Below, piece after piece: positions 22-50,471 of a DNA stretch of 64,000 bases. The stretch is from positions 43,408 through 107,407 of IMG/VR virus record IMGVR_UViG_3300046542_000168. One strand, given 5' to 3'. Origin of the DNA: a virus. Within the stretch, counting starts at the first letter, position 1. Every line of letters begins with the position of its first letter. The translations under genes were made by a program, and so were the position numbers. The notes below the pieces were generated by a model, which did not search any database, was not told where the DNA came from, and saw only the letters and a program-made list of their open reading frames with translations.

Positions 22-49
22 TTGACAGGAGTTGAAAGTCGTGTAGTAT
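22..49 (+). promoter_or_regulatory. sigma70-type promoter
   Basis: TTGACA(22-27)-N16-TAGTAT(44-49), inside an imperfect inverted repeat (3-39). Confidence 0.7.
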
Positions 50-130
50 GGCGTCTCCAGTTTGCTCAAGGGCAGACTGACGTAAGAACAGAATTTATTT
101 CAGTAAGTCAGTAAGACAGGAAGAACTAAA

Positions 131-745
131 GTGACCCAGATTTCCGTAACTCGTGCTCTCGCCCAGGTTAAGAGCCTGAATGACCGCATTCAACGTGGCA
201 CCGTAGCACAGTTCATCGCAATTGCCGTAGGTGGTAAGGTTTCCGGTAAGTCCTCTGTTCAAGAGGCAGAGCAAACCGTTACTAGCAACCTACAGTCCGT
301 CCAGGGCCTAATTGCCCAGCGGAACACCCTCAAATCAGCCATCGTCAAGAGCAACGCGACCACTACGGTGTCGATCGCCGGTAAAGTCATGACTGTGGCT
401 GAGGCCATCGAGCGTAAGTCCTCGATCATCCTCGAACACAACCTACTCCAGCAGATCCGTGGCCAGCAGAATCAAGCCATTGCTGCTGTAGATCGCCACA
501 ACGTCGATGTACGTCAACGCTGTGACAATCTCCTGGCCCAGGCTTATGGCCGTGACGTGAAGATCAGCGAGGCCGACAGTCAGGCTATCACCGGCCCATA
601 CGAAGAGAAGCACAAAGCTGCTCTGGTAGATGCGAACAAGCTGGACACTGTTATCGAAAAGATGCAGGCCGAGTTGGACGCTTTTACCCTGGAAGTAGAC
701 TTCGCCCTGAGTGAAGTAAACGCTAAGACTCTGATCGAAGCGTAA
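131..745 (+). CDS. conserved coiled-coil phage protein, DIP1984-like
   Basis: 204 aa helical ORF with RBS; motifs TRALAQVK..RI, SNATTTV..G..MTVAEAIERK and DFALSEVNAKTLI resemble DIP1984-type proteins by eye. Confidence 0.6.
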   Translation: MTQISVTRALAQVKSLNDRIQRGTVAQFIAIAVGGKVSGKSSVQEAEQTVTSNLQSVQGLIAQRNTLKSAIVKSNATTTVSIAGKVMTVAEAIERKSSIILEHNLLQQIRGQQNQAIAAVDRHNVDVRQRCDNLLAQAYGRDVKISEADSQAITGPYEEKHKAALVDANKLDTVIEKMQAELDAFTLEVDFALSEVNAKTLIEA

Positions 746-43234: not shown

Positions 43235-44539
43235 ATGAACTTTATTAAGAAAGCAGGTATCGGTATTGCAGCCGGTGCCTTGGTACTGATCGGCACATTC
43301 AATAGTGTATTCGTATACAACGAAGCCGGTTATCAAACTCACATTCGTACAATCACGGGTGAAGAGAAAGTAGTTACCGAAGTTGGTTATGCCACTAAGT
43401 GGTTCGGTAAGGCCACGCCCTGGAAGCAGGCACAAACCCTCCAGTTCTCCATCGTTAAAGAAGGTGAAACAAGCCGTGAGGTTGATGACGGCGTAGGGAT
43501 CGACAACTACCGCGTTACCTTCCTGGGCAACGTTGATGGTGTTGTGGAAGCTTCCACACGATTCCGTATGCCCCAGGGCGAACAGTTCCTGAAGATTGCT
43601 CGTGAGTATCGCACTCCAGACAACTTCATGCAGACTGCTGTATTGCCAGCAGTGAAAGAGACTCTGCAAACTACAGCGTCCCTGATGACTGCCGATGAAT
43701 ACTTCGCTGGTAGCCGCTCTGAGTTTAGTTCGAACTTCGATGACCAACTTCGAAATGGCCAGTTCGCAGTTAAACGTAAGGAAGTTCAACAAGTAATTGA
43801 AACCAATCGTAGCGAAGGTGACAAGCTTGTTTCCGGTGCTGGTATTGACGGTGAACAGAAACGTACAGCGTTCGTAACTGAGAAAGAAACTGACGACAAG
43901 GGCCGTGAAGTTCGCAAGTCCCAGGTCTTCGTTGGTATGGGTGTAGACGTTGTAGAGGCTCGTGTCCCTAACATCCTGCCGAACCCTCAGTTCCTGGCTC
44001 GCATGGTCAAGGTGCAATCGGCCCAGGCGGATCTGGTAGTCGCTCGTGCGGATCGTCTGAAAGAGGAAGAGGCGAAGCTGCTGGCCATCGCTCGTGGTCA
44101 ACGCAACGTCGAAGAGAAGCGCCAAGAAACCTTGCGTAATCAGGTCGAGCAGACCACCAACGCAGAAACCACCAAGCTCCTGGCGATCACCGCTGCTAAG
44201 CAGGCTGAAGAGTCGGCAGCCATCTCTAAGCGTACCTCCGTCGAGCTGCTGGCAAAGGCTGAGATTGACGCCAAGGCGACCAAGACCACTGCTGATGCTG
44301 AGGCGTATGCGAAAAAGGCTCTGATCCTCGCTGACGGCGCTCTGACGCAGAAACTGGCTACCCTGGAGAACATCAACAGCGTGTGGGCCCAGGCTGCTGC
44401 TAACGCCCCTGTACCGAGCGTGATGATGGGTAATGGTGGTGGTCAAGGTTCTAGCCGTCAGAGTGAGATTGGTGAACTAATGTCGATCATGGCTGCAAAG
44501 GCTGCGAAAGACTTGTCGGTTGATCTTTCCACTAAGTAA
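43235..44539 (+). CDS. SPFH/Band-7 (flotillin-like) membrane protein
   Basis: N-terminal TM, Band-7-like core, long AE-rich coiled coil, VPSVMMG end. Confidence 0.85.
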   Translation: MNFIKKAGIGIAAGALVLIGTFNSVFVYNEAGYQTHIRTITGEEKVVTEVGYATKWFGKATPWKQAQTLQFSIVKEGETSREVDDGVGIDNYRVTFLGNVDGVVEASTRFRMPQGEQFLKIAREYRTPDNFMQTAVLPAVKETLQTTASLMTADEYFAGSRSEFSSNFDDQLRNGQFAVKRKEVQQVIETNRSEGDKLVSGAGIDGEQKRTAFVTEKETDDKGREVRKSQVFVGMGVDVVEARVPNILPNPQFLARMVKVQSAQADLVVARADRLKEEEAKLLAIARGQRNVEEKRQETLRNQVEQTTNAETTKLLAITAAKQAEESAAISKRTSVELLAKAEIDAKATKTTADAEAYAKKALILADGALTQKLATLENINSVWAQAAANAPVPSVMMGNGGGQGSSRQSEIGELMSIMAAKAAKDLSVDLSTK

Positions 44540-44542
44540 CTA

Positions 44543-44634
44543 ACTGCGGAAGATTCCGTTCCGTGGTAATTACTTACTGCGGAACATTTCTAAAACTAGT
44601 GCGGAGTATTCCTAAAATTACTGCGGAAGATTCC
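44543..44634 (+). repeat. iteron-like direct repeats
   Basis: A(C/G)TGCGGA.NATTYC at 44543, 44576, 44598 and 44620 (spacing 33/22/22), plus an inverted partial copy at 44558-44569. Confidence 0.75.
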
Positions 44635-44677
44635 AGTACGTCAAAAGCGAGTAATCAGTACAGTGGGTAATTCAGAA

Positions 44678-45073
44678 ATGTCGAAAGTCAGTAACACCGA
44701 GTTGACTGGAGAAGTTCGATATAAACATCTCCGACTGCAAGTCTGGGATCAGAACATGCAGGAACAAACTTACAACAAGGGCGGGATCACTATCGCGTAT
44801 CGCTACTTGACCGGCGATGAGGCCGAACGAGTCACTGGCCTGGATATTCAGCCAGCAATCTTGGTGGGGTTCGCGGGGTGTTCCTGGGCAGACAACTTCG
44901 ACCGGAAGGTTGGTCGTTCGATTGCCGAACAGCGATTGGCGAAAAGTCAGGTAGTCATCACCGGGGAGCGAACTATCAAGCGCCTGATGACGGCGACTGA
45001 TCCGATGCACGTTGCCGATATCCTGGGAGAACCGATGGCGACTCAAGGTCTTCGGATCGGACTCTGCGCCTGA
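44678..45073 (+). CDS. hypothetical phage protein
   Basis: GG.TIAY...CS..DNF.RKVGR.IA..RL motif. Confidence 0.65.
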   Translation: MSKVSNTELTGEVRYKHLRLQVWDQNMQEQTYNKGGITIAYRYLTGDEAERVTGLDIQPAILVGFAGCSWADNFDRKVGRSIAEQRLAKSQVVITGERTIKRLMTATDPMHVADILGEPMATQGLRIGLCA

Positions 45074-45316
45074 AACGGGCAGAGCTAAGTTACTGTTTTC
45101 GCTGATGAAATAATTCATCTAGTTTCCCTTCGACAACCCACCGAACAGGCGGATTGATCCCGTAAAAAGTTGTATCGAAGGGGGGCGAATCAGTAGACAT
45201 CCTAGGCTGGTAAGACCTATAATAGGGTCTGCTGAGTCGAGAATCCCAGGCGGCTAAACCAGGTATTCCCCTCGACTCCAGAACAGGTGGGTTGGTATCC
45301 CAGCCGGTTCACTTCA

Positions 45317-45347
45317 AGGCCCCTCTTCGTGAGGGGCTTTGTCGTTT
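45317..45347 (+). terminator. intrinsic terminator
   Basis: GCCCCTC-ttcgt-GAGGGGC followed by TTTGT. Confidence 0.65.
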
Positions 45348-45770
45348 CTGGGGCAGAGGTTAGTCCCGTTCGGAACACTTCGCAATACCCCATCGTAAAT
45401 AACCTTTTTCTTGACAATCAGCTCTGACTGGCGTAGAGAGCTGCGGCACGACGGATTGGCCACCCCAGCGAAGCGCCAGGGTGGACGATGCGTTGGGACG
45501 TAGCCGACAAGCGAAGCGCGTCAGTGTCCCAGGCACCGCGTTCCACCCCGCTAAAACACCCCCTATAAGATAAGAGCTTTTCCGAACTCCCGGTTTTATT
45601 ACCTTTCCCCGATTTTTCATACCGTTAAAGCGTATGAACACTTCCTTTTAAAATTATGACTTGTACCTCTTAAAGGTATAAAAGATAATGGCAAACGGAG
45701 GGTGAAAATAAGCATCCTCTAGTACCTTGATTTAGAAGATTTTATCGATCACTAGGGGAAGGCGAACGCC

Positions 45771-46268
45771 ATGGCTAGCGGCAAGAAAACGGTTAAAAAT
45801 CGTACAGAAATGACCGTCACCGATCACACGACTGGGGAGGCTCTATCGAGTGAAAAAACCGTCACGTACAGAGTCCCGAGAGAGCCGGACTTTGTAAAGG
45901 TGTACACCGGGGCCTTTAAGGAGGTAGTCACAAAGAAGGGTTGCCATCTGGCGATGTTTATGCTTCTGGTTGACAAGATGGGGTATGAGAATGAAATCGG
46001 CCTGACCCCGGCCGGTCGTGTCAGGATCTGCGAAGCCCTGGGTATCCAGGCACAGACCTTCCGAAACCATTTGAATGACTTGCTGGAGCGCGATGTTCTC
46101 CGTCGAACTAGTCACGGAGAGTTCATAGTAAACCCGACGTATATTGCCAGGGGTGAGTTCGAGAAAATTCTGCCCAGGATAGAGGCGTACAATAAGATCG
46201 GGAGGGTGAAAACTAAGAAGGGTCGGGCCCCGAAGCCTAAAGAATCCCTGGAAGAGTCAACTAATTGA
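45771..46268 (+). CDS. RepL-like wHTH replication/maintenance protein
   Basis: D..TGE, FVKVY, HTH (ICEALGIQAQTFRNHL..L), G.FIVNP.YI.RG. Confidence 0.7.
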   Translation: MASGKKTVKNRTEMTVTDHTTGEALSSEKTVTYRVPREPDFVKVYTGAFKEVVTKKGCHLAMFMLLVDKMGYENEIGLTPAGRVRICEALGIQAQTFRNHLNDLLERDVLRRTSHGEFIVNPTYIARGEFEKILPRIEAYNKIGRVKTKKGRAPKPKESLEESTN

Positions 46269-46274
46269 TACAAG

Positions 46275-46296
46275 AAAAGGGCCGAAAGGCCCTTTT
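46275..46296. terminator. bidirectional terminator
   Basis: AAAAGGGCC-gaaa-GGCCCTTTT. Confidence 0.8.
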
Positions 46297-46371
46297 TATT
46301 TGCCCGAAATAAGGGGCTAAAACAACTAAAGGGGCCATATGGCCCCTTGCTATATACGACTTTTTACTGCC

Positions 46372-46965
46372 CTACTGGGGTGGCTGGATAAATCCATGAC
46401 TAGTCAGCCACATATCCAGGGCCTCGGTCATAATGGCTTTCTGTGACTTCTTAGTAAACATCCCAGCCAGTTTCAACAACTGGGCGCGACGGGGATCTAA
46501 TGGGGTGCTGACGTTACACTCCTTTAGAAACTCCGGGTTGAGTCCCCCTGTTTCCATCATTCCAGTTAGCATAGCAGCCATAGCCGCCATTGGATTCTGA
46601 GGTGCATCGCTCACTGGTGCAGCTTCCTGTACTGGTTGCGGTTGAGTGGGTGCAGGCTCTACTACCTGGGCAACTGGTGCAGGTTCCGCTACTTGCTGCG
46701 GTTGAACTGGCGTTGGCTGTGGTGCTGCAACTGGTGCAGGGACAACTTCTTCAGCCTGGGCGATTTCAGTCTGTGCAACTAACACAGGCTGCGGGGCTGG
46801 CTCTTCTGTTACCTGGGGCTGAGCAACTACCGGCTCTTGTACCTGGGCTGCACCTACCGCCGAGATGTTATTCACCGGGGTCGGGTTCGTAAGCATATCT
46901 TGAAGAGATAGGCGATCAGCGGCACGGTCGGCGGCGCGATCTGTTCGAGTTTTCTTGGCGCTCAT
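46372..46965 (-). CDS. ribbon-helix-helix centromere-binding protein with long P/Q/A/V linker (type Ib ParB/ParG-like)
   Basis: C-terminal NVSTPLD..RAQLLK....TKKSQKAIMTEALDMWL; basic N-terminus; downstream of parA. Confidence 0.65.
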   Translation of the reverse strand: MSAKKTRTDRAADRAADRLSLQDMLTNPTPVNNISAVGAAQVQEPVVAQPQVTEEPAPQPVLVAQTEIAQAEEVVPAPVAAPQPTPVQPQQVAEPAPVAQVVEPAPTQPQPVQEAAPVSDAPQNPMAAMAAMLTGMMETGGLNPEFLKECNVSTPLDPRRAQLLKLAGMFTKKSQKAIMTEALDMWLTSHGFIQPPQ

Positions 46966-46980
46966 AATTGCATACCTGCT

Positions 46981-47420
46981 TAATTATTCAACCACTTCTT
47001 TAAGTGGCCGCGTGATGACGTGGTTGAGCCCTCACGTCACTGATGCAGCGCTTACCTGGGCAAGCGGTCACTATAGCAACCACTCCCCTGCGTAACCCCT
47101 CACGCGATTAGATGCCTAACTGACTGATTCGTCAAGCGATCAACCACGCAAGTGACCATTCAAGTAAGCGGACACTCGGTCAATTAGCCGAGTCATCACG
47201 CGGGTGATGAATCAATCGTTCAAGCAATTGATGGATCAATGGACCGATTGAACGATGGATCAATGAAGCCATTGATCCATCGGATGTATATACAACCCAT
47301 GGGTCAATGGATCACTCGTTCAAGCAATTGATTGATCACTCGTTTGCTTGGTCAGTCACTTCGCCGCCTGCTTGCCTGACTGGTCATCCAGTTTGATGCT
47401 TGCGTGCTTGCTCGGCTTCT
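46981..47420. repeat. degenerate 4-nt-period array (candidate centromere, part 1)
   Basis: in-register tetramers caat/tgat/cgat/caag/cact; extends into the 3' end of parA. Confidence 0.7.
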
Positions 47421-48135
47421 TCACCACCTTTGCCTTGCCCACTTCTTCATTAGTAAGTGGGTCGATGATTACTGGGTTTTCGACATGAATGCCCAGCTCC
47501 ATCAGGATGCAGTCGGTTAGGGCGGCAATCTCCCTGGCACCCTTATTACGCTTATCAATCTCGGCCAGGGTGCTACCAGTTCTCAGACAGTTCACGAAAC
47601 CTGCCTTGTAGTGGATGGTAGGGCCAAGCTTCCCGGCAGACGCCAGGGCAATCACTGCATCAGTTGCAATGTTGGTGGTCGGATGTACTTCGTTCAGTAC
47701 GAACAGCCGGGGAGTAGTGATTTCTTTCGAAGTGAGGTCGCTCAACGACTTGACCATCGACCACAGGTCGAAGTAGCTAGCCTTCGAAGGCATAACCAAC
47801 AGGTCAGCAAGTTTGAGCACGTTGAAGATATCGCTGTGGCCGAAACCTGGGGTGTCGATCACCAGGAAATCCAGGCCCCCCGCTTCCAGCTTCGGGATTA
47901 CTGCTTCTAGCTGATCGATGCCGATAGCCAGCAACTCTGGGTCGCCCAACTCGCGCTTGTCCAACCATGTAGTGGTGTTCGCAGTGGGGTCGATGTCCAT
48001 CATGCCAACGTGGTAGCCCTTCGATGCCAGGGTGCCGCCGAGTTGAACGCTGATGGTGGACTTACCACAGCCGCCCTTCTGGTTGGTGACACAGATGATC
48101 TTGAGCTTACGCTTGAACTGACTAGGGAGTTGCAT
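47356..48135 (-). CDS. parA: ParA-family partition ATPase (type Ib, no N-terminal HTH)
   Basis: deviant Walker A NQKGGCGKST, DIDP, VIDTPG, ADLLVMP. Confidence 0.92.
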   Translation of the reverse strand: MQLPSQFKRKLKIICVTNQKGGCGKSTISVQLGGTLASKGYHVGMMDIDPTANTTTWLDKRELGDPELLAIGIDQLEAVIPKLEAGGLDFLVIDTPGFGHSDIFNVLKLADLLVMPSKASYFDLWSMVKSLSDLTSKEITTPRLFVLNEVHPTTNIATDAVIALASAGKLGPTIHYKAGFVNCLRTGSTLAEIDKRNKGAREIAALTDCILMELGIHVENPVIIDPLTNEEVGKAKVVKKPSKHASIKLDDQSGKQAAK

Positions 48136-48160
48136 GGGTGCTTCCTCTATATATAGGTGC

Positions 48161-48980
48161 TCACTGAGTGAGCTATTCCTTGCTAGGTTGACCGCTTACG
48201 CGGCTGAGTGCGTCCGTGCGTGGGCAAGCTATCGATGGGGCAGTCGGTCACTCGCGTAACCCATCACTGCATCAATCGCCTGGGTAATCCCCTAAGTGCG
48301 CAATTCATCGAGCCATTCATTGGCCGATCATTTCACTGCTTGAGTCATCCATCGCTCGATTGGTCGGTAGCGTGCTTCTTCACTTAATCAATGCGTCAAT
48401 CAAGTGCTTCCGCACGCAACCCATCAAGCAAGCCATTAGTCCATCCATCGCTTCCGTAAGCACTCACTGGCGCGATTCACCACTTACTTGGTCGTTCGCT
48501 TGCGTGAGTGACTGGTTACGCGGTGAAGCAACTACTGGCTTGCTCAACCACTCCCTCGCTCGACTATCTGATTGCCCGACCGATTAAGGCAGGAATCAAT
48601 CAATGAGTCAGTCAACGAAGCAGTTGCTCGATCAACCGAGTCATCACTCGGTCAGGAACTCAATCACTTGCGCCCTTGAGGAACCATTTAAACACCCGCT
48701 CGATCCCTTGTCAAACTAATTGATAGCTTAAAGCCTTCATGAATTGATCGTGCGACTGACCGATAGATCGATAGGCTGATGAATTGAGTGACCAACCGAT
48801 GGAGCGATGATTGACTGAAGTAATTGATATCTCCATTCCTGAAGCAAGCAATGCCGCACTGATGTGTGTGAGGCAATGATGACAGGACCGAATGAACAAG
48901 CGTCCAATGGGTCAAGCAATTGATGGATCAATGGGTCGAGCGTTCAATGGGTCAATGGAACCATGGGATGTATATACAAG
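48161..48980. repeat. degenerate 4-nt-period array (candidate centromere, part 2)
   Basis: same tetramer register for ~800 bp; shares TCAAGCAATTGATGGATCAATGG and GGATGTATATACAA blocks with part 1. Confidence 0.7.
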
Positions 48981-49137
48981 TAACGGTCCTACGCCGATTC
49001 TGACCAGTTCACAGGAGCTAAGCCCCTGCCAGGGCACCCAGGGTCGGCATACCGCTATCCAGGCCAATACCAGGGCAGATACGCAACGTCGCTACAGGGG
49101 GCTCATAGGGGCTTCAGGCGGTAAATTCGCAGGAGGG

Positions 49138-49289
49138 TTGCAAGGATGGGAGGAAGTGGATAGAGTGCCGTCCGTCGAACGTTGCTGACCCTCATAATCT
49201 CCCCGGAATATGTTGGTCCGTTGCTTCCTTGCTCTGATCCGTGATTGGTGGCGTTCGATACTAAGCCGCTCCCTCGTGAGCGGCTTTTT
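49138..49289 (+). ncRNA. sRNA cassette 1 (promoter + ~115 nt + terminator)
   Basis: TTGCAA-N17-TAGAGT; terminator AAGCCGCTC/GAGCGGCTT-TTT; no + strand ORF with RBS. Confidence 0.55.
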
Positions 49290-49381
49290 CATGCCCGCAA
49301 TAATTGCCTCACAGGGGCTCTATCCCGCAAGGCCCATCGGTCAGATTGTCCTACACCTCAGATGAACGGTGCCATCACTCA

Positions 49382-49485
49382 TTGCGTCAGGTGCCATCAT
49401 TGGGTAAAATCCCTGGGTTGGTTGTACAGTTCGCCTACTCAGCAACAACATCGAGAAGCCGCCCACACCGGGGCGGCTTTTCTTT
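49382..49485 (+). ncRNA. sRNA cassette 2 (promoter + ~70 nt + terminator)
   Basis: TTGCGT-N17-TAAAAT; terminator AAGCCGCCC/GGGCGGCTT-TTT. Confidence 0.55.
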
Positions 49486-49517
49486 ATCTGATGGAATGGC
49501 TGGACAGGCGAACAGTA

Positions 49518-49533
49518 CTGTATATAATTACAG
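49518..49533. promoter_or_regulatory. LexA (SOS) box overlapping a -10 element
   Basis: taCTGTATATAATTACAG = CTGT-N8-ACAG; promoter TGGACA-N16-TATAAT. Confidence 0.85.
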
Positions 49534-49534
49534 C

Positions 49535-49626
49535 GTTAACCTCGGTAGGGACTCGTCATCCCTTCACCAGTCTTAGGGTGGATTCGTCGTCCACACTTTA
49601 GCCGCCTACCAGGGCGGCTTTTCTTT
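49535..49626 (+). ncRNA. sRNA cassette 3, predicted SOS-inducible ~90-nt RNA
   Basis: lies between the LexA-boxed promoter and terminator AGCCGCC/GGCGGCT-TTT; no credible ORF. Confidence 0.6.
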
Positions 49627-49704
49627 GCTCGATGGGGAAGGAGTAGAGGGAGGGGTAGAGCAGAAATGAAGAAGGGCCTCGATTGAGGCCCTTGCTTGTG
49701 TAGC

Positions 49705-50097
49705 TTATTCGTTGAGAGTGGCCCAACCTTTTACCGCTTCAACTCCCCACTTCTTCCTCCACTCATTGAGCACTGTGTGGTTGCCGTGAGAGCTAACAAT
49801 TTTCTCGTTAGTGTGAGGATTTACCCAGGTCTTTGTGGGCCTTCCTCCCTCTGTTGTAGCTGCTGCCTTAGCTACCTTAGCTGCACCTGTAGCTTGAGCT
49901 TTCGGAGCCTTATAGTTCTCATCAAGGATCTGATTCACATCTACCAGGGAGCGAGAGTGCTTAGCTAGGAGAGCACGTAGCTCACTCTCGAATACCTGTA
50001 GCGACTTAAGCTCAGGGTCATCCTGAAGAGCATCCAGTTGAGCTTTAGCCGCAGCTAGGGCAGCTCGTGCGAGACGGAGTTGAACGATCTTGGACAT
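49705..50097 (-). CDS. second MvaT-family nucleoid protein (divergent)
   Basis: FE.ELRALL..H..SL.DV..IL and W.NPHTNE.I....GNH.VL.EW..KWG.EAV.GW. Confidence 0.85.
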   Translation of the reverse strand: MSKIVQLRLARAALAAAKAQLDALQDDPELKSLQVFESELRALLAKHSRSLVDVNQILDENYKAPKAQATGAAKVAKAAATTEGGRPTKTWVNPHTNEKIVSSHGNHTVLNEWRKKWGVEAVKGWATLNE

Positions 50098-50205
50098 ATA
50101 GCTCTCTTGCGTGATTGGTGGAAAGTCTTACACTAGCAGTGCGTTAAGTCGCGCACTATAAGCTCAAGTAGCTCGCAACGGAAGAGAGTACTCAAGCTTA
50201 AGCTC

Positions 50206-50318
50206 AAAAATTCCATCACAGGGGCCTCTCAAAAACTCCATTACAGGGGGTACAGATTTCCTCACAGTGGGGTACTGAATTTCCCTACAGGGGCTAGCTG
50301 AGTTTCCTCACACGGGGT
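50206..50318 (+). repeat. five imperfect ~23-bp direct repeats
   Basis: YTCC..YACA.GGGG cores with ACA at 50218, 50243, 50264, 50287 and 50310. Confidence 0.7.
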
Positions 50319-50384
50319 AAGCTCGATCTACCCTGGCTCGATGCTGCATTGTGAGCGTCCCCATTCATTCCTGTCTTAGATAGG

Positions 50385-50471
50385 TAGCTAACTATCGATT
50401 TACTTGCATAGCTAGCTATCGATTTAGTTGATTAGCTAACTAAGCATTTAGATGCATAGCTAACTAACTAC
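50385..50471 (+). repeat. 24-bp tandem repeat, ~3.5 copies
   Basis: TAGCTARCTA....TTTA..TG.. at 50385, 50409, 50433 and 50457. Confidence 0.75.

Follow-up and report, generated by a model that had tools for sequence, protein, structure and literature searches.

The stretch of viral DNA analyzed here, referred to as the window, is 64,000 nucleotides long and corresponds to bases 43,408-107,407, i.e., the right 64 kb, of a 107,407-bp phage record from IMG/VR, whose full sequence is designated G0 (G000). Between approximately 44.5 and 50.5 kb of the window lie a gene for a RepL-family replication initiator, a gene for a candidate centromere-binding protein, parA encoding a type Ib ATPase, and a gene for a xenogeneic silencer of the MvaT/MvaU family, together with two long arrays of phased tetramers flanking parA, predicted small RNAs, and a transcription unit with a LexA box. 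The plasmid-type character of this module is well supported, since it is conserved across a phage clade, a Xer-type recombinase and a dif-like site co-occur with it, its ParA resembles ParF, its RepL and MvaT proteins have relatives on plasmids, and its SOS box is conserved.

Four relatives of the phage were obtained from IMG/VR: G001 (G1) of 106,866 bp with terminal repeats, G002 (G2) of 105,402 bp, G003 (G3), a 46.8-kb fragment, and the more distant G004 of 89,218 bp. The TerL proteins of the first three are 80-96% identical to that of the window. In G1 and G2 the order of the genes is kept, namely open reading frame (ORF) 191 (ORF191), ORF159, (ORF141), SPFH, ORF136, RepL on the plus strand, the partner and ParA on the minus strand, a long non-coding stretch, and MvaT on the minus strand. 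Each of the two also encodes a XerC-like protein, so that XerC and MvaT are shared by the three complete genomes, G0, G1, and G2. The G3 fragment contains SPFH, RepL and ParA in the matching order and neither ORF136 nor MvaT; RepL and ParA are thus common to all close relatives fetched. G004 (TerL 40%, PolA 25% identical) is devoid of RepL, ParA, MvaT, XerC and ORF136 and retains the SPFH gene. Among cultured phages the closest relative is Pseudomonas putida phage phiPMW, with a TerL 42% identical to that of G0, followed by vB_PpS_SYP and vB_PsaM_M1. No Pseudomonas phage was matched when RepL and MvaT were used as queries against 50,697 phage records, none was present among the 25 ParA matches listed, and a megablast search of the region against the same records gave zero matches. 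In the right-hand 43 kb of the phiPMW record, the part that was read, no par or rep gene is annotated, and since this phage has the same kind of replisome, RepL is not needed for lytic replication in this phage type. From this pattern of presence in G1-G3 and absence from G004 and Pseudomonas phages, the module behaves as one linked block, gained and lost together, that marks a subclade of approximately 105-107 kb. ParA homologues of 55-94% identity are located on further contigs of 101-109 kb in Logan, ENA, and JGI data. The sub-region comprising par, the small RNAs, and mvaT cannot be aligned with the relatives at the DNA level.

The parA gene (47356-48135, minus strand) encodes a protein of 259 amino acids (aa) with a conserved C-terminal tail (NF041546 ParA_partition, 2e-34; phrog_164), a deviant Walker A motif KGGCGKST at residues 20-27, and no N-terminal helix-turn-helix (HTH) domain. 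The best solved relatives of a ParA profile of the clade, both matched over the full length, are TP228 ParF (4dzz, E 2.7e-16) and 5u1g, deposited as ParA (E ~3e-16), which we take to be the ParA-ParB (ParF-ParG) complex of TP228. Downstream of parA, at 46372-46965 on the minus strand, lies the gene for the candidate centromere-binding partner, a ParG-like protein of 197 aa composed of a basic N-terminal helix, a disordered linker rich in P/E/A/Q, and a C-terminus resembling the ribbon-helix-helix (RHH) fold. The sequence-only reading of this region had proposed a type Ib ParA with an RHH partner; the ATPase was confirmed, and the partner is present with a weak match to Antitox_RHH (E 0.032). 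Its homologues, encoded in the corresponding place in G1 and G2, are approximately 30% identical and share the three-part build, and their strand-helix-turn-helix C-ends are clearer. A profile of the partner gave no sequence match in the PDB, and the model of its monomer (pLDDT 49.5) was too poor for a fold search. When two copies of ParA were modelled with residues 1-50 of the partner, the complex obtained a score of 0.62, the best of three controls reaching 0.00; the mark applied to such models is passed by 58 of 80 solved complexes and by 2 of 110 mismatched pairs. At least 56% of the contacts were common to the runs, the pLDDT of the partner was at least 49, and partner residues 7-30 were placed against ParA residues 37-44, 62-88 and 192. 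The model thus supports docking of the N-terminal tail of the partner on ParA.

ParA is flanked on both sides by non-coding DNA of an unusual kind, much larger than the centromere-like array that had been described at first, which proved to be real. The left array, of ~79 tetramers of the TYRA type, occupies 47040-47355 (316 bp) between parA and the partner gene, and the right array, of 207 TYRA tetramers in a single phase, occupies 48136-48965 (830 bp) upstream of parA. Taken together, the arrays comprise ~286 tetramers phased strictly every 4 nucleotides (nt) as N-Y-R-N, neither of them containing a phase break. The consensus tetramer is T-Y-R-A, and TCAA, TTGA, TCGA, and GCAA are the commonest. 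Autocorrelation at lags 4/8/12 amounts to 0.37-0.48 in the arrays vs. 0.15-0.21 at other lags, the left array having 0.37-0.47 vs. 0.15-0.2, and the period-4 information is 0.46 bits per position in the left and 0.38 in the right array, the maxima of 500 shuffles being 0.06 and 0.02, respectively. Diverged coding sequence was ruled out as their origin by a period-3 information of approximately zero, and a parH-like layout of 8-bp units, each a box plus a spacer, by the equal composition of odd and even tetramers. A genome-wide scan detected such phased DNA only at parA in G0, G1, and G2; only one other segment of G0 stood out clearly, and this one, with a score of 0.20, consists of an ordinary tandem repeat of 24 bp, whereas window 34-234 barely passed the threshold. 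In G1 and G2 parA likewise lies between single-phase arrays, a short one of ~230-280 bp and a long one of ~800-1,100 bp, which keep the central Y-R step and favor other tetramers, GTAA, TTAC, GTAC, and GTGC; shorter arrays flank parA in G3. The right array of G0 terminates in a 27-nt inverted copy of a segment of the left one, and the two copies (47285-47311 and 48952-48978, 85% complementary), each with the palindrome TGTATATACA, bracket parA and the long array; inverted copies are also seen when the comparison is widened to the 80-bp segments at 47231-47311 and 48923-48978. This inverted repeat may be a high-affinity core of the centromere. Its palindrome was also considered as a LexA site and rejected because of the wrong spacing.

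The arrays are best read as a greatly extended, spacer-less variant of the ParG/parH-type centromere. The centromere/operator of the E. coli multiresistance plasmid TP228 consists of 20 degenerate ACTC tetramers, present in both orientations and regularly separated by 4-bp AT-rich spacers; dimers of ParG coat this DNA in a cooperative manner and recruit ParF through their N-tails (PMC3130281). Both systems have a small Walker ParA without an HTH domain, ParF being the best solved profile match of the phage protein; a partner with a flexible N-tail, in the phage modelled onto the ATPase, and with a C-end that is of the RHH type in TP228 and RHH-like in the phage; and degenerate 4-bp boxes, in both orientations, upstream of parA. 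The sequences are, however, only distantly related, and the phage RHH fold has no confident model. Unlike in TP228, every phage tetramer is box-like and no AT-rich spacers occur, there are ~286 tetramers instead of 20 boxes, the arrays are approximately seven times longer and lie on both sides of parA, one of them separates parA from the partner gene, and the partner, of 197 aa, has a long P/E/A/Q linker. ParA (36% and 42% identity to G1 and G2) and the partner (~30%) belong to the lowest 1-9% of identities among the 85-87 proteins shared with these genomes, for which the median is 70-72%. Together with the shift in favored tetramers, this divergence fits a diversifying partition specificity of the kind expected of incompatibility determinants.

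The replication part of the module lies to the left of the partner gene. The initiator gene repL (45771-46268, plus strand) encodes a protein of 165 aa matching PF05732 with an E of 5e-10 and 39.5 bits vs. the cut-off of 20.3, residues 5-151 being aligned with positions 4-146 of the 164-position profile, so that the RepL-like protein noticed in the sequence-only reading is a member of this family. It is 57-61% identical in G1 and G2. Proteins annotated as RepL on plasmids of 2.3-3.5 kb from E. coli, Klebsiella, and Aeromonas are ~30% identical to it, and on these plasmids the RepL relative is the sole rep gene annotated under the match; Bacillus plasmids of this size range are also among the carriers of relatives, as are the Sodalis phage phiSG1 (~30% identical) and Arsenophonus elements. 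The 700-bp spacer between ORF136 and repL has a mean column identity of 80%, compared with 53-61% for the flanking proteins. Its first part encodes a predicted small RNA of ~115 nt (45194-45345, plus strand; 430 nt upstream of repL), preceded by the conserved promoter TAGACA-N18-TATAAT (11/12 promoter match) and closed by an intrinsic terminator at 45315-45341; the RNA has a three-hairpin consensus fold with compensatory changes in 8 of 38 pairs over three genomes. A scan of 40-54 kb with Rfam (E up to 1) gave one chance match to a miRNA and no family for this RNA. The second part, the conserved non-coding DNA at 45346-45770, contains twin AGCGAAGCGC repeats within a near-invariant block of 90 bp and an AT-rich tract. 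The spacer may be regarded as the likeliest origin and control region, the non-coding DNA at 45346-45770 being a candidate origin or repL leader.

On its left side this part is bordered by ORF136 (44663-45073, plus strand), encoding a conserved protein 53-56% identical in G1 and G2, where it has the same position. It has no match in Pfam, PHROG or NCBIfam, and its model (pLDDT 71) gave no convincing fold match, the lowest E in Foldseek being 0.34 and the highest Z in VIA 4.2. Upstream of ORF136, at 44539-44641, four iteron-like direct repeats of the form A(C/G)TGCGGAAGATTCC, with the core ACTGCGGAAGATTCC and a spacing of 33/22/22 bp, are present. The iterons claimed at first thus exist as repeats; they are 1.1 kb away from repL and partly kept (four copies in G2, two in G1), and they may constitute an operator rather than replication iterons.

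No integrase had been noticed in the window, which is correct for the window itself; outside it, at G000:C1:2144-3076, the genome encodes a XerC/XerD-like tyrosine recombinase with a Xer-type N-terminal domain. The enzyme remains below the equivalog cut-offs, with 279.7 bits vs. 335 for TIGR02224 and 254 vs. 330 for TIGR02225, and by sequence it is Xer-like and an orthologue of neither XerC nor XerD. A parS of the chromosomal type, TGTTTCACGTGGAACA, at position 1580 and a dif-like palindrome adjoin its gene. The GGGNAGGG (KOPS-like) motifs of G0 are strongly polarized, 17 being in reverse and 2 in forward orientation, whatever the orientation of the genes; the switch takes place between 85 and 101 kb, and the two forward copies are situated beyond the dif-like site and the module. 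The cumulative GC-skew has its minimum at ~85 kb in genome coordinates, immediately to the left of the module, the skew being confounded by gene orientation. Both features are compatible with bidirectional replication from the module toward the dif-like site.

Between the long array and mvaT, two short ORF-free stretches (49190-49485, plus strand) each close with a hairpin of the AGCCGC...GCGGCTTTT type, the first one, at 49263-49289 and with a T-run, having been read in the sequence and the second one, at 49453-49482, found in the terminator scan. They are followed by a predicted SOS-controlled unit (49501-49627, plus strand), composed of the promoter TGGACA-N16-TATAAT, the LexA box, a transcript of ~90 nt and a terminator at 49600-49619. 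The LexA box claimed at first, CTGTATATAATTACAG (CTGT-N8-ACAG), is located at 49518-49533 and overlaps the -10 element of the promoter, an 11/12 match to sigma-70 promoters. The pattern by itself is not rare, the window containing two copies vs. 1.3 expected; the box is credible because G1 and G2 each contain a single CTGT-N8-ACAG, positioned as in the window, after a terminator and between the long array and mvaT. In both relatives it overlaps a promoter as well, and a related short transcript ends in the same AGCCGCC...GGCGGCTTT terminator. The ~90-nt transcript has no credible ORF. Its hairpins expose the loops CUCGUCA and UUCGUCG, YUCGUCR loops being present twice in G0 and G2 and once in G1, and since G1 is without one of the hairpins, RNAalifold cleanly recovered the terminator alone; a search for 7-mer targets of the loops gave chance-level matches only. 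N15 and GIL01, phage-plasmids with LexA-linked induction (PMC11652158, PMC4551915), likewise have an SOS box on a switch-region promoter of their extrachromosomal prophages. Their product is an antirepressor protein; that predicted for the present phage is, in contrast, a ~90-nt RNA. According to a reference cited in PMC11652158, the anti-immunity locus of N15 also uses a small RNA.

The right end of the module is formed by the gene (49705-50097, minus strand) for a silencer of 130 aa, which passes both curated cut-offs, those of NF041859 (92.3 bits vs. 75, residues 1-126) and PF22055 (28.1 vs. 27, residues 89-125), in agreement with the MvaT homolog recognized earlier. It is 37-55% identical in G1 and G2. 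Homologues were found in 261 plasmid records, 243 of them from Pseudomonas and mostly large plasmids, vs. a single phage record. The MvaT family is restricted to Pseudomonadales, and a review from 2020 lists H-NS and Lsr2 homologues carried by phages and no MvaT (PMC7074111). Like Pmr of plasmid pCAR1 (PMC4138198, PMC7074111), the plasmid-borne homologue that has been studied, the protein is an MvaT-family member on a mobile replicon of the Pseudomonas type; unlike Pmr, it is borne by a phage, and it is 32-40% identical to the plasmid copies. Two sets of tandem repeats are located upstream of mvaT at 50203-50466, approximately five units of 23 bp with the core YCACAGGGG and 3.4 units of 24 bp (TAGCTAACTATCGATTTAGTTGCA). 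The YCACAGGGG cluster (50203-50319), directly upstream of mvaT and conserved in G0, G1, and G2, could function as an operator or as a second site of the origin type. Single copies of YCACAGGGG are also present at 49093 and 49310 in the small-RNA region and are likewise placed in G1 and G2.

The module is embedded in the genome of a tailed phage. The G0 record is rated 100% complete by CheckV, has a terminal overlap of 127 bp and a GC content of ~50%, and originates from a rhizosphere metagenome, one such run holding all words of the record; of the other sequencing runs sharing words with it, one contains a share of 0.40 and four contain small shares, and no RNA run is among those listed. The structural genes form a block at 6-38 kb of the window that is syntenic with that of the relatives, and the set of tailed-phage genes is complete. 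At 1.1-5.1 kb of the window ARAGORN identified 18 tRNA genes and not 21, as counted originally. Encoded in the left arm, which is not part of the window, are a family-A DNA polymerase, a T7 gp4-like primase-helicase, ThyX, and both subunits of ribonucleotide reductase, as well as a nicotinate phosphoribosyltransferase and a PRPP-synthetase-like protein. On account of these replisome and nucleotide-metabolism genes and of the TerL relation to phiPMW, the "virulent-style" backbone of G0 is real. The gene immediately preceding the module (43235-44539; SPFH/Band-7 protein of 434 aa, PF01145; phrog_11908, E 1e-64) belongs to this backbone and not to the plasmid kit, because it is retained in the distant G004, which has no module.

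Taken together, the segment at ~44.5-50.5 kb can be regarded as a maintenance and switch module of plasmid type by means of which the ~107-kb phage probably persists as a low-copy circular plasmid prophage in a host from the Pseudomonadales. Although the step from the module to this lifestyle is one that we infer, partition, dimer resolution, a plasmid initiator, a silencer, and an SOS box cohere only for a circular replicon in dividing cells. The probable phage-plasmid proposed in the sequence-only reading has thus gained on the side of the module, which is more strongly of plasmid type than first seen; its lifestyle is inferred, and no carrier turned up in the searches with ParA and TerL. 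In such a prophage RepL would initiate replication that depends on the host, the origin lying in the conserved non-coding DNA next to repL, and the ~115-nt structured RNA encoded just upstream might set the copy number. The RHH-tailed partner would coat both tetramer arrays flanking parA, and its N-terminal helix, docked as in the structure model, would recruit and stimulate the ParF-like ParA, so that sister copies could be separated over the nucleoid. Dimers would be resolved by the XerC-like recombinase at the dif-like site. The MvaT paralogue would help to quiet the phage DNA of 50% GC or buffer the MvaT pool of the host, as Pmr does for pCAR1. The ~90-nt transcript would be repressed by host LexA and released upon DNA damage, leading to lytic growth, which would then run on the T7-type replisome, ribonucleotide reductase, and tRNAs of the phage. 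A more far-reaching version, which we offer only tentatively, is that a lineage of virulent-type myoviruses turned into plasmid prophages of soil Pseudomonadales without a CI-type repressor, small RNAs, one of them LexA-controlled, together with MvaT deciding between lysis and lysogeny; in this version the arrays represent a new phase-locked (N-Y-R-N)n centromere of more than 1 kb, covered by an RHH polymer in a 4-bp register, and the tetramer codes act as incompatibility determinants.

Several observations weigh against a plasmid prophage. Neither isolate genomes nor GTDB representatives yielded a carrier, and close relatives of ParA and TerL were found only in Logan, ENA, JGI, and NCBI records, none of which is labelled as an isolate; one cluster of the NCBI relatives, with a contig of 107,168 bp, is labelled compost metagenome. 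A paper on a compost community (PMC10462680) does not describe this element. In 185,579 representative bacterial genomes, scanned for ParA with generic Walker-A patterns, and in metagenome contigs, where the scan by ParA alignment was swamped by such patterns, none of the matches listed exceeded 36% identity over more than ~110 residues. Two runs with relatives are filed under the name of an organism; they contain 3.7-4.7 million contigs each at ~8x depth and look, from these numbers, like communities and not isolates. No CI/S24-type repressor was identified in the genome. The only candidates for a repressor are a protein of 103 aa with a sub-threshold HTH_3 match, encoded left of the window at the junction of the minus-strand replication arm and the plus-strand genes (G000:C1:43008-43319), and an Arc-like DNA-binding protein of 175 aa (G000:C1:8007-8534), both conserved in G1 and G2. 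The score of the modelled ParA-partner complex may in part reflect likeness to a solved structure, if 5u1g is a ParF-ParG complex. Furthermore, backbones like those of phiPMW and Felix-O1 are treated as non-temperate (PMC5587285), partition genes occur in supposedly strictly virulent phages of the BigBertha community, and Pfeifer et al. caution that the presence of partition genes in SPO1-like phages need not make these phage-plasmids (PMC7969092).

These points are also the strength of a different explanation, according to which the phage is strictly virulent and uses parts of plasmid type during infection. RepL would then mark an origin for the phage replisome, ParA, the partner, and the arrays would position or organize replicating DNA on the nucleoid, MvaT would counter or poison silencing of low-GC phage DNA by host MvaT/MvaU, and by means of the LexA box an early RNA would be adjusted to host stress. 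The complete replisome of the T7 type, the genes for ribonucleotide reductase, ThyX, and NAD salvage, and the 18 tRNAs agree well with such a life, as do the cultured relatives regarded as non-temperate, the failure to find a carrier or a repressor of a known type, and the precedent of partition genes in SPO1-like phages described as virulent. Yet partition, dimer resolution, and SOS sensing pay off only in dividing cells that keep a circular replicon for generations. The gene set, moreover, occurs as a block that relatives with a replisome of this kind do not have, the divergence of ParA and its partner resembles that of incompatibility determinants, and the relatives of RepL are replicases of small plasmids; a purely virulent life therefore seems to us rather unlikely.

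A temperate, integrating phage is much less probable still. Its XerC-like enzyme, a Xer-type tyrosine recombinase scoring below the TIGR02224 cut-off and encoded beside a dif-like palindrome, could insert the genome at the dif of the host or at another site in an IMEX-like manner, the par and rep genes serving a transient episomal phase, and some elements with partition genes, e.g., P88, do occur integrated (PMC7969092). However, no contig of the more than 20 close relatives exceeds ~109 kb or has bacterial flanks, which argues against chromosomal integration, although virions and plasmids are not separated thereby. Contigs of relatives in the two organism-named runs and in a wastewater run pass through parS, the dif-like site, and xerC unbroken, and a full set of rep, par, and silencer genes would be superfluous in an integrated prophage. 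A short contig, X2, with loose ends at 1455 and 1879, was considered as a host junction and looks like another phage variant instead. That the module is an assembly chimera, or a plasmid fragment captured recently, once, and without function, is extremely unlikely. The genome was assembled from a metagenome, and the par/small RNA/mvaT DNA does not align with that of the relatives; but the gene order recurs in four other independent assemblies, ParA homologues are present on several contigs of 101-109 kb, the reading frames are all intact, and the non-coding parts are conserved or covarying, so that this explanation is effectively refuted by synteny over independent assemblies.

Most of the known phage-plasmids come from Enterobacteria, Vibrio, Acinetobacter, and Firmicutes, and they have been recognized largely through isolates carrying them. 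The tailed phage-plasmid P1 (RepL, ParAB/parS, Cre/lox) has in common with G0 a gene of the RepL family, a partition system, and a tyrosine recombinase fit for resolving dimers. In P1, however, RepL serves lytic replication, the plasmid replicon consists of RepA and iterons, ParA is of type Ia and ParB of the HTH type, and an own DNA polymerase is absent. The backbone of G0 has no sequence relation to that of P1, and P1 RepL was not among the tblastn matches to the phage RepL. Elements of the SSU5/pHCM2 type are circular, ~100-110 kb in size, and have their own DNA-metabolism genes. The members of their supergroup are large phage-plasmids in which the phage core is conserved and the set of plasmid genes varies (PMC7969092), a layout similar to that of the present phage. 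They are, however, siphoviruses of Enterobacteria known from many isolate genomes, whereas the clade described here has a phiPMW/Felix-O1-type backbone, comes from metagenomes only, and differs in its unrelated TerL, ParA, and Rep. phiPMW itself (Plaisancevirus; PMC5587285) resembles G0 in its TerL, its replication arm with primase/helicase and DNA polymerase, and the presence of tRNAs, and differs by having six tRNAs, a GC content of 45%, a description as non-temperate, and no match to RepL or MvaT.

What would be new is a phage-plasmid lineage on a phiPMW/Felix-O1-type backbone and, within it, a ParF/ParG-like system with a phase-locked, spacer-less centromere of more than 1 kb, split around parA. 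If the plasmid-prophage reading is true, Pseudomonadales harbor a group of phage-plasmids on a backbone otherwise scored as virulent, which bears on lifestyle prediction from genomes and on the choice of "strictly lytic" phages for the biocontrol of plant-associated Pseudomonas. The ~286 phase-locked tetramers with lineage-specific preferences represent an experimentally tractable extreme of the ParG/parH type, in which the reading and coating of DNA by RHH proteins and the evolution of partition specificity could be followed, and the conserved LexA-controlled small RNA and the phage MvaT are candidates for components of a lysogeny switch that has no protein repressor. If, on the other hand, the phage is virulent, it is a clear and also new case of a full partition machine used by a virulent phage during infection.

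It is also worth mentioning a few minor features of these genomes. The genes for nicotinate phosphoribosyltransferase and the PRPP-synthetase-like protein are adjacent in the replication arm (L247:10837-13412; G000:C1:30837-33412), and the duo looks like an NAD-salvage pair, comparable with those of phages countering NAD-depleting defences. A second MvaT-like stretch, with 40% identity over 93 aa, is present in G1 far from the module (G001:C1:91059-91328). Finally, the slot between the long array and the LexA unit differs among the relatives: G2 has there an ORF of 101 aa (L242:5964-6269), which, judged by eye, looks like an XRE-type HTH protein, and G1 an unrelated ORF of 123 aa (L235:11924-12295), and these differing small genes suggest that the slot accommodates cargo.

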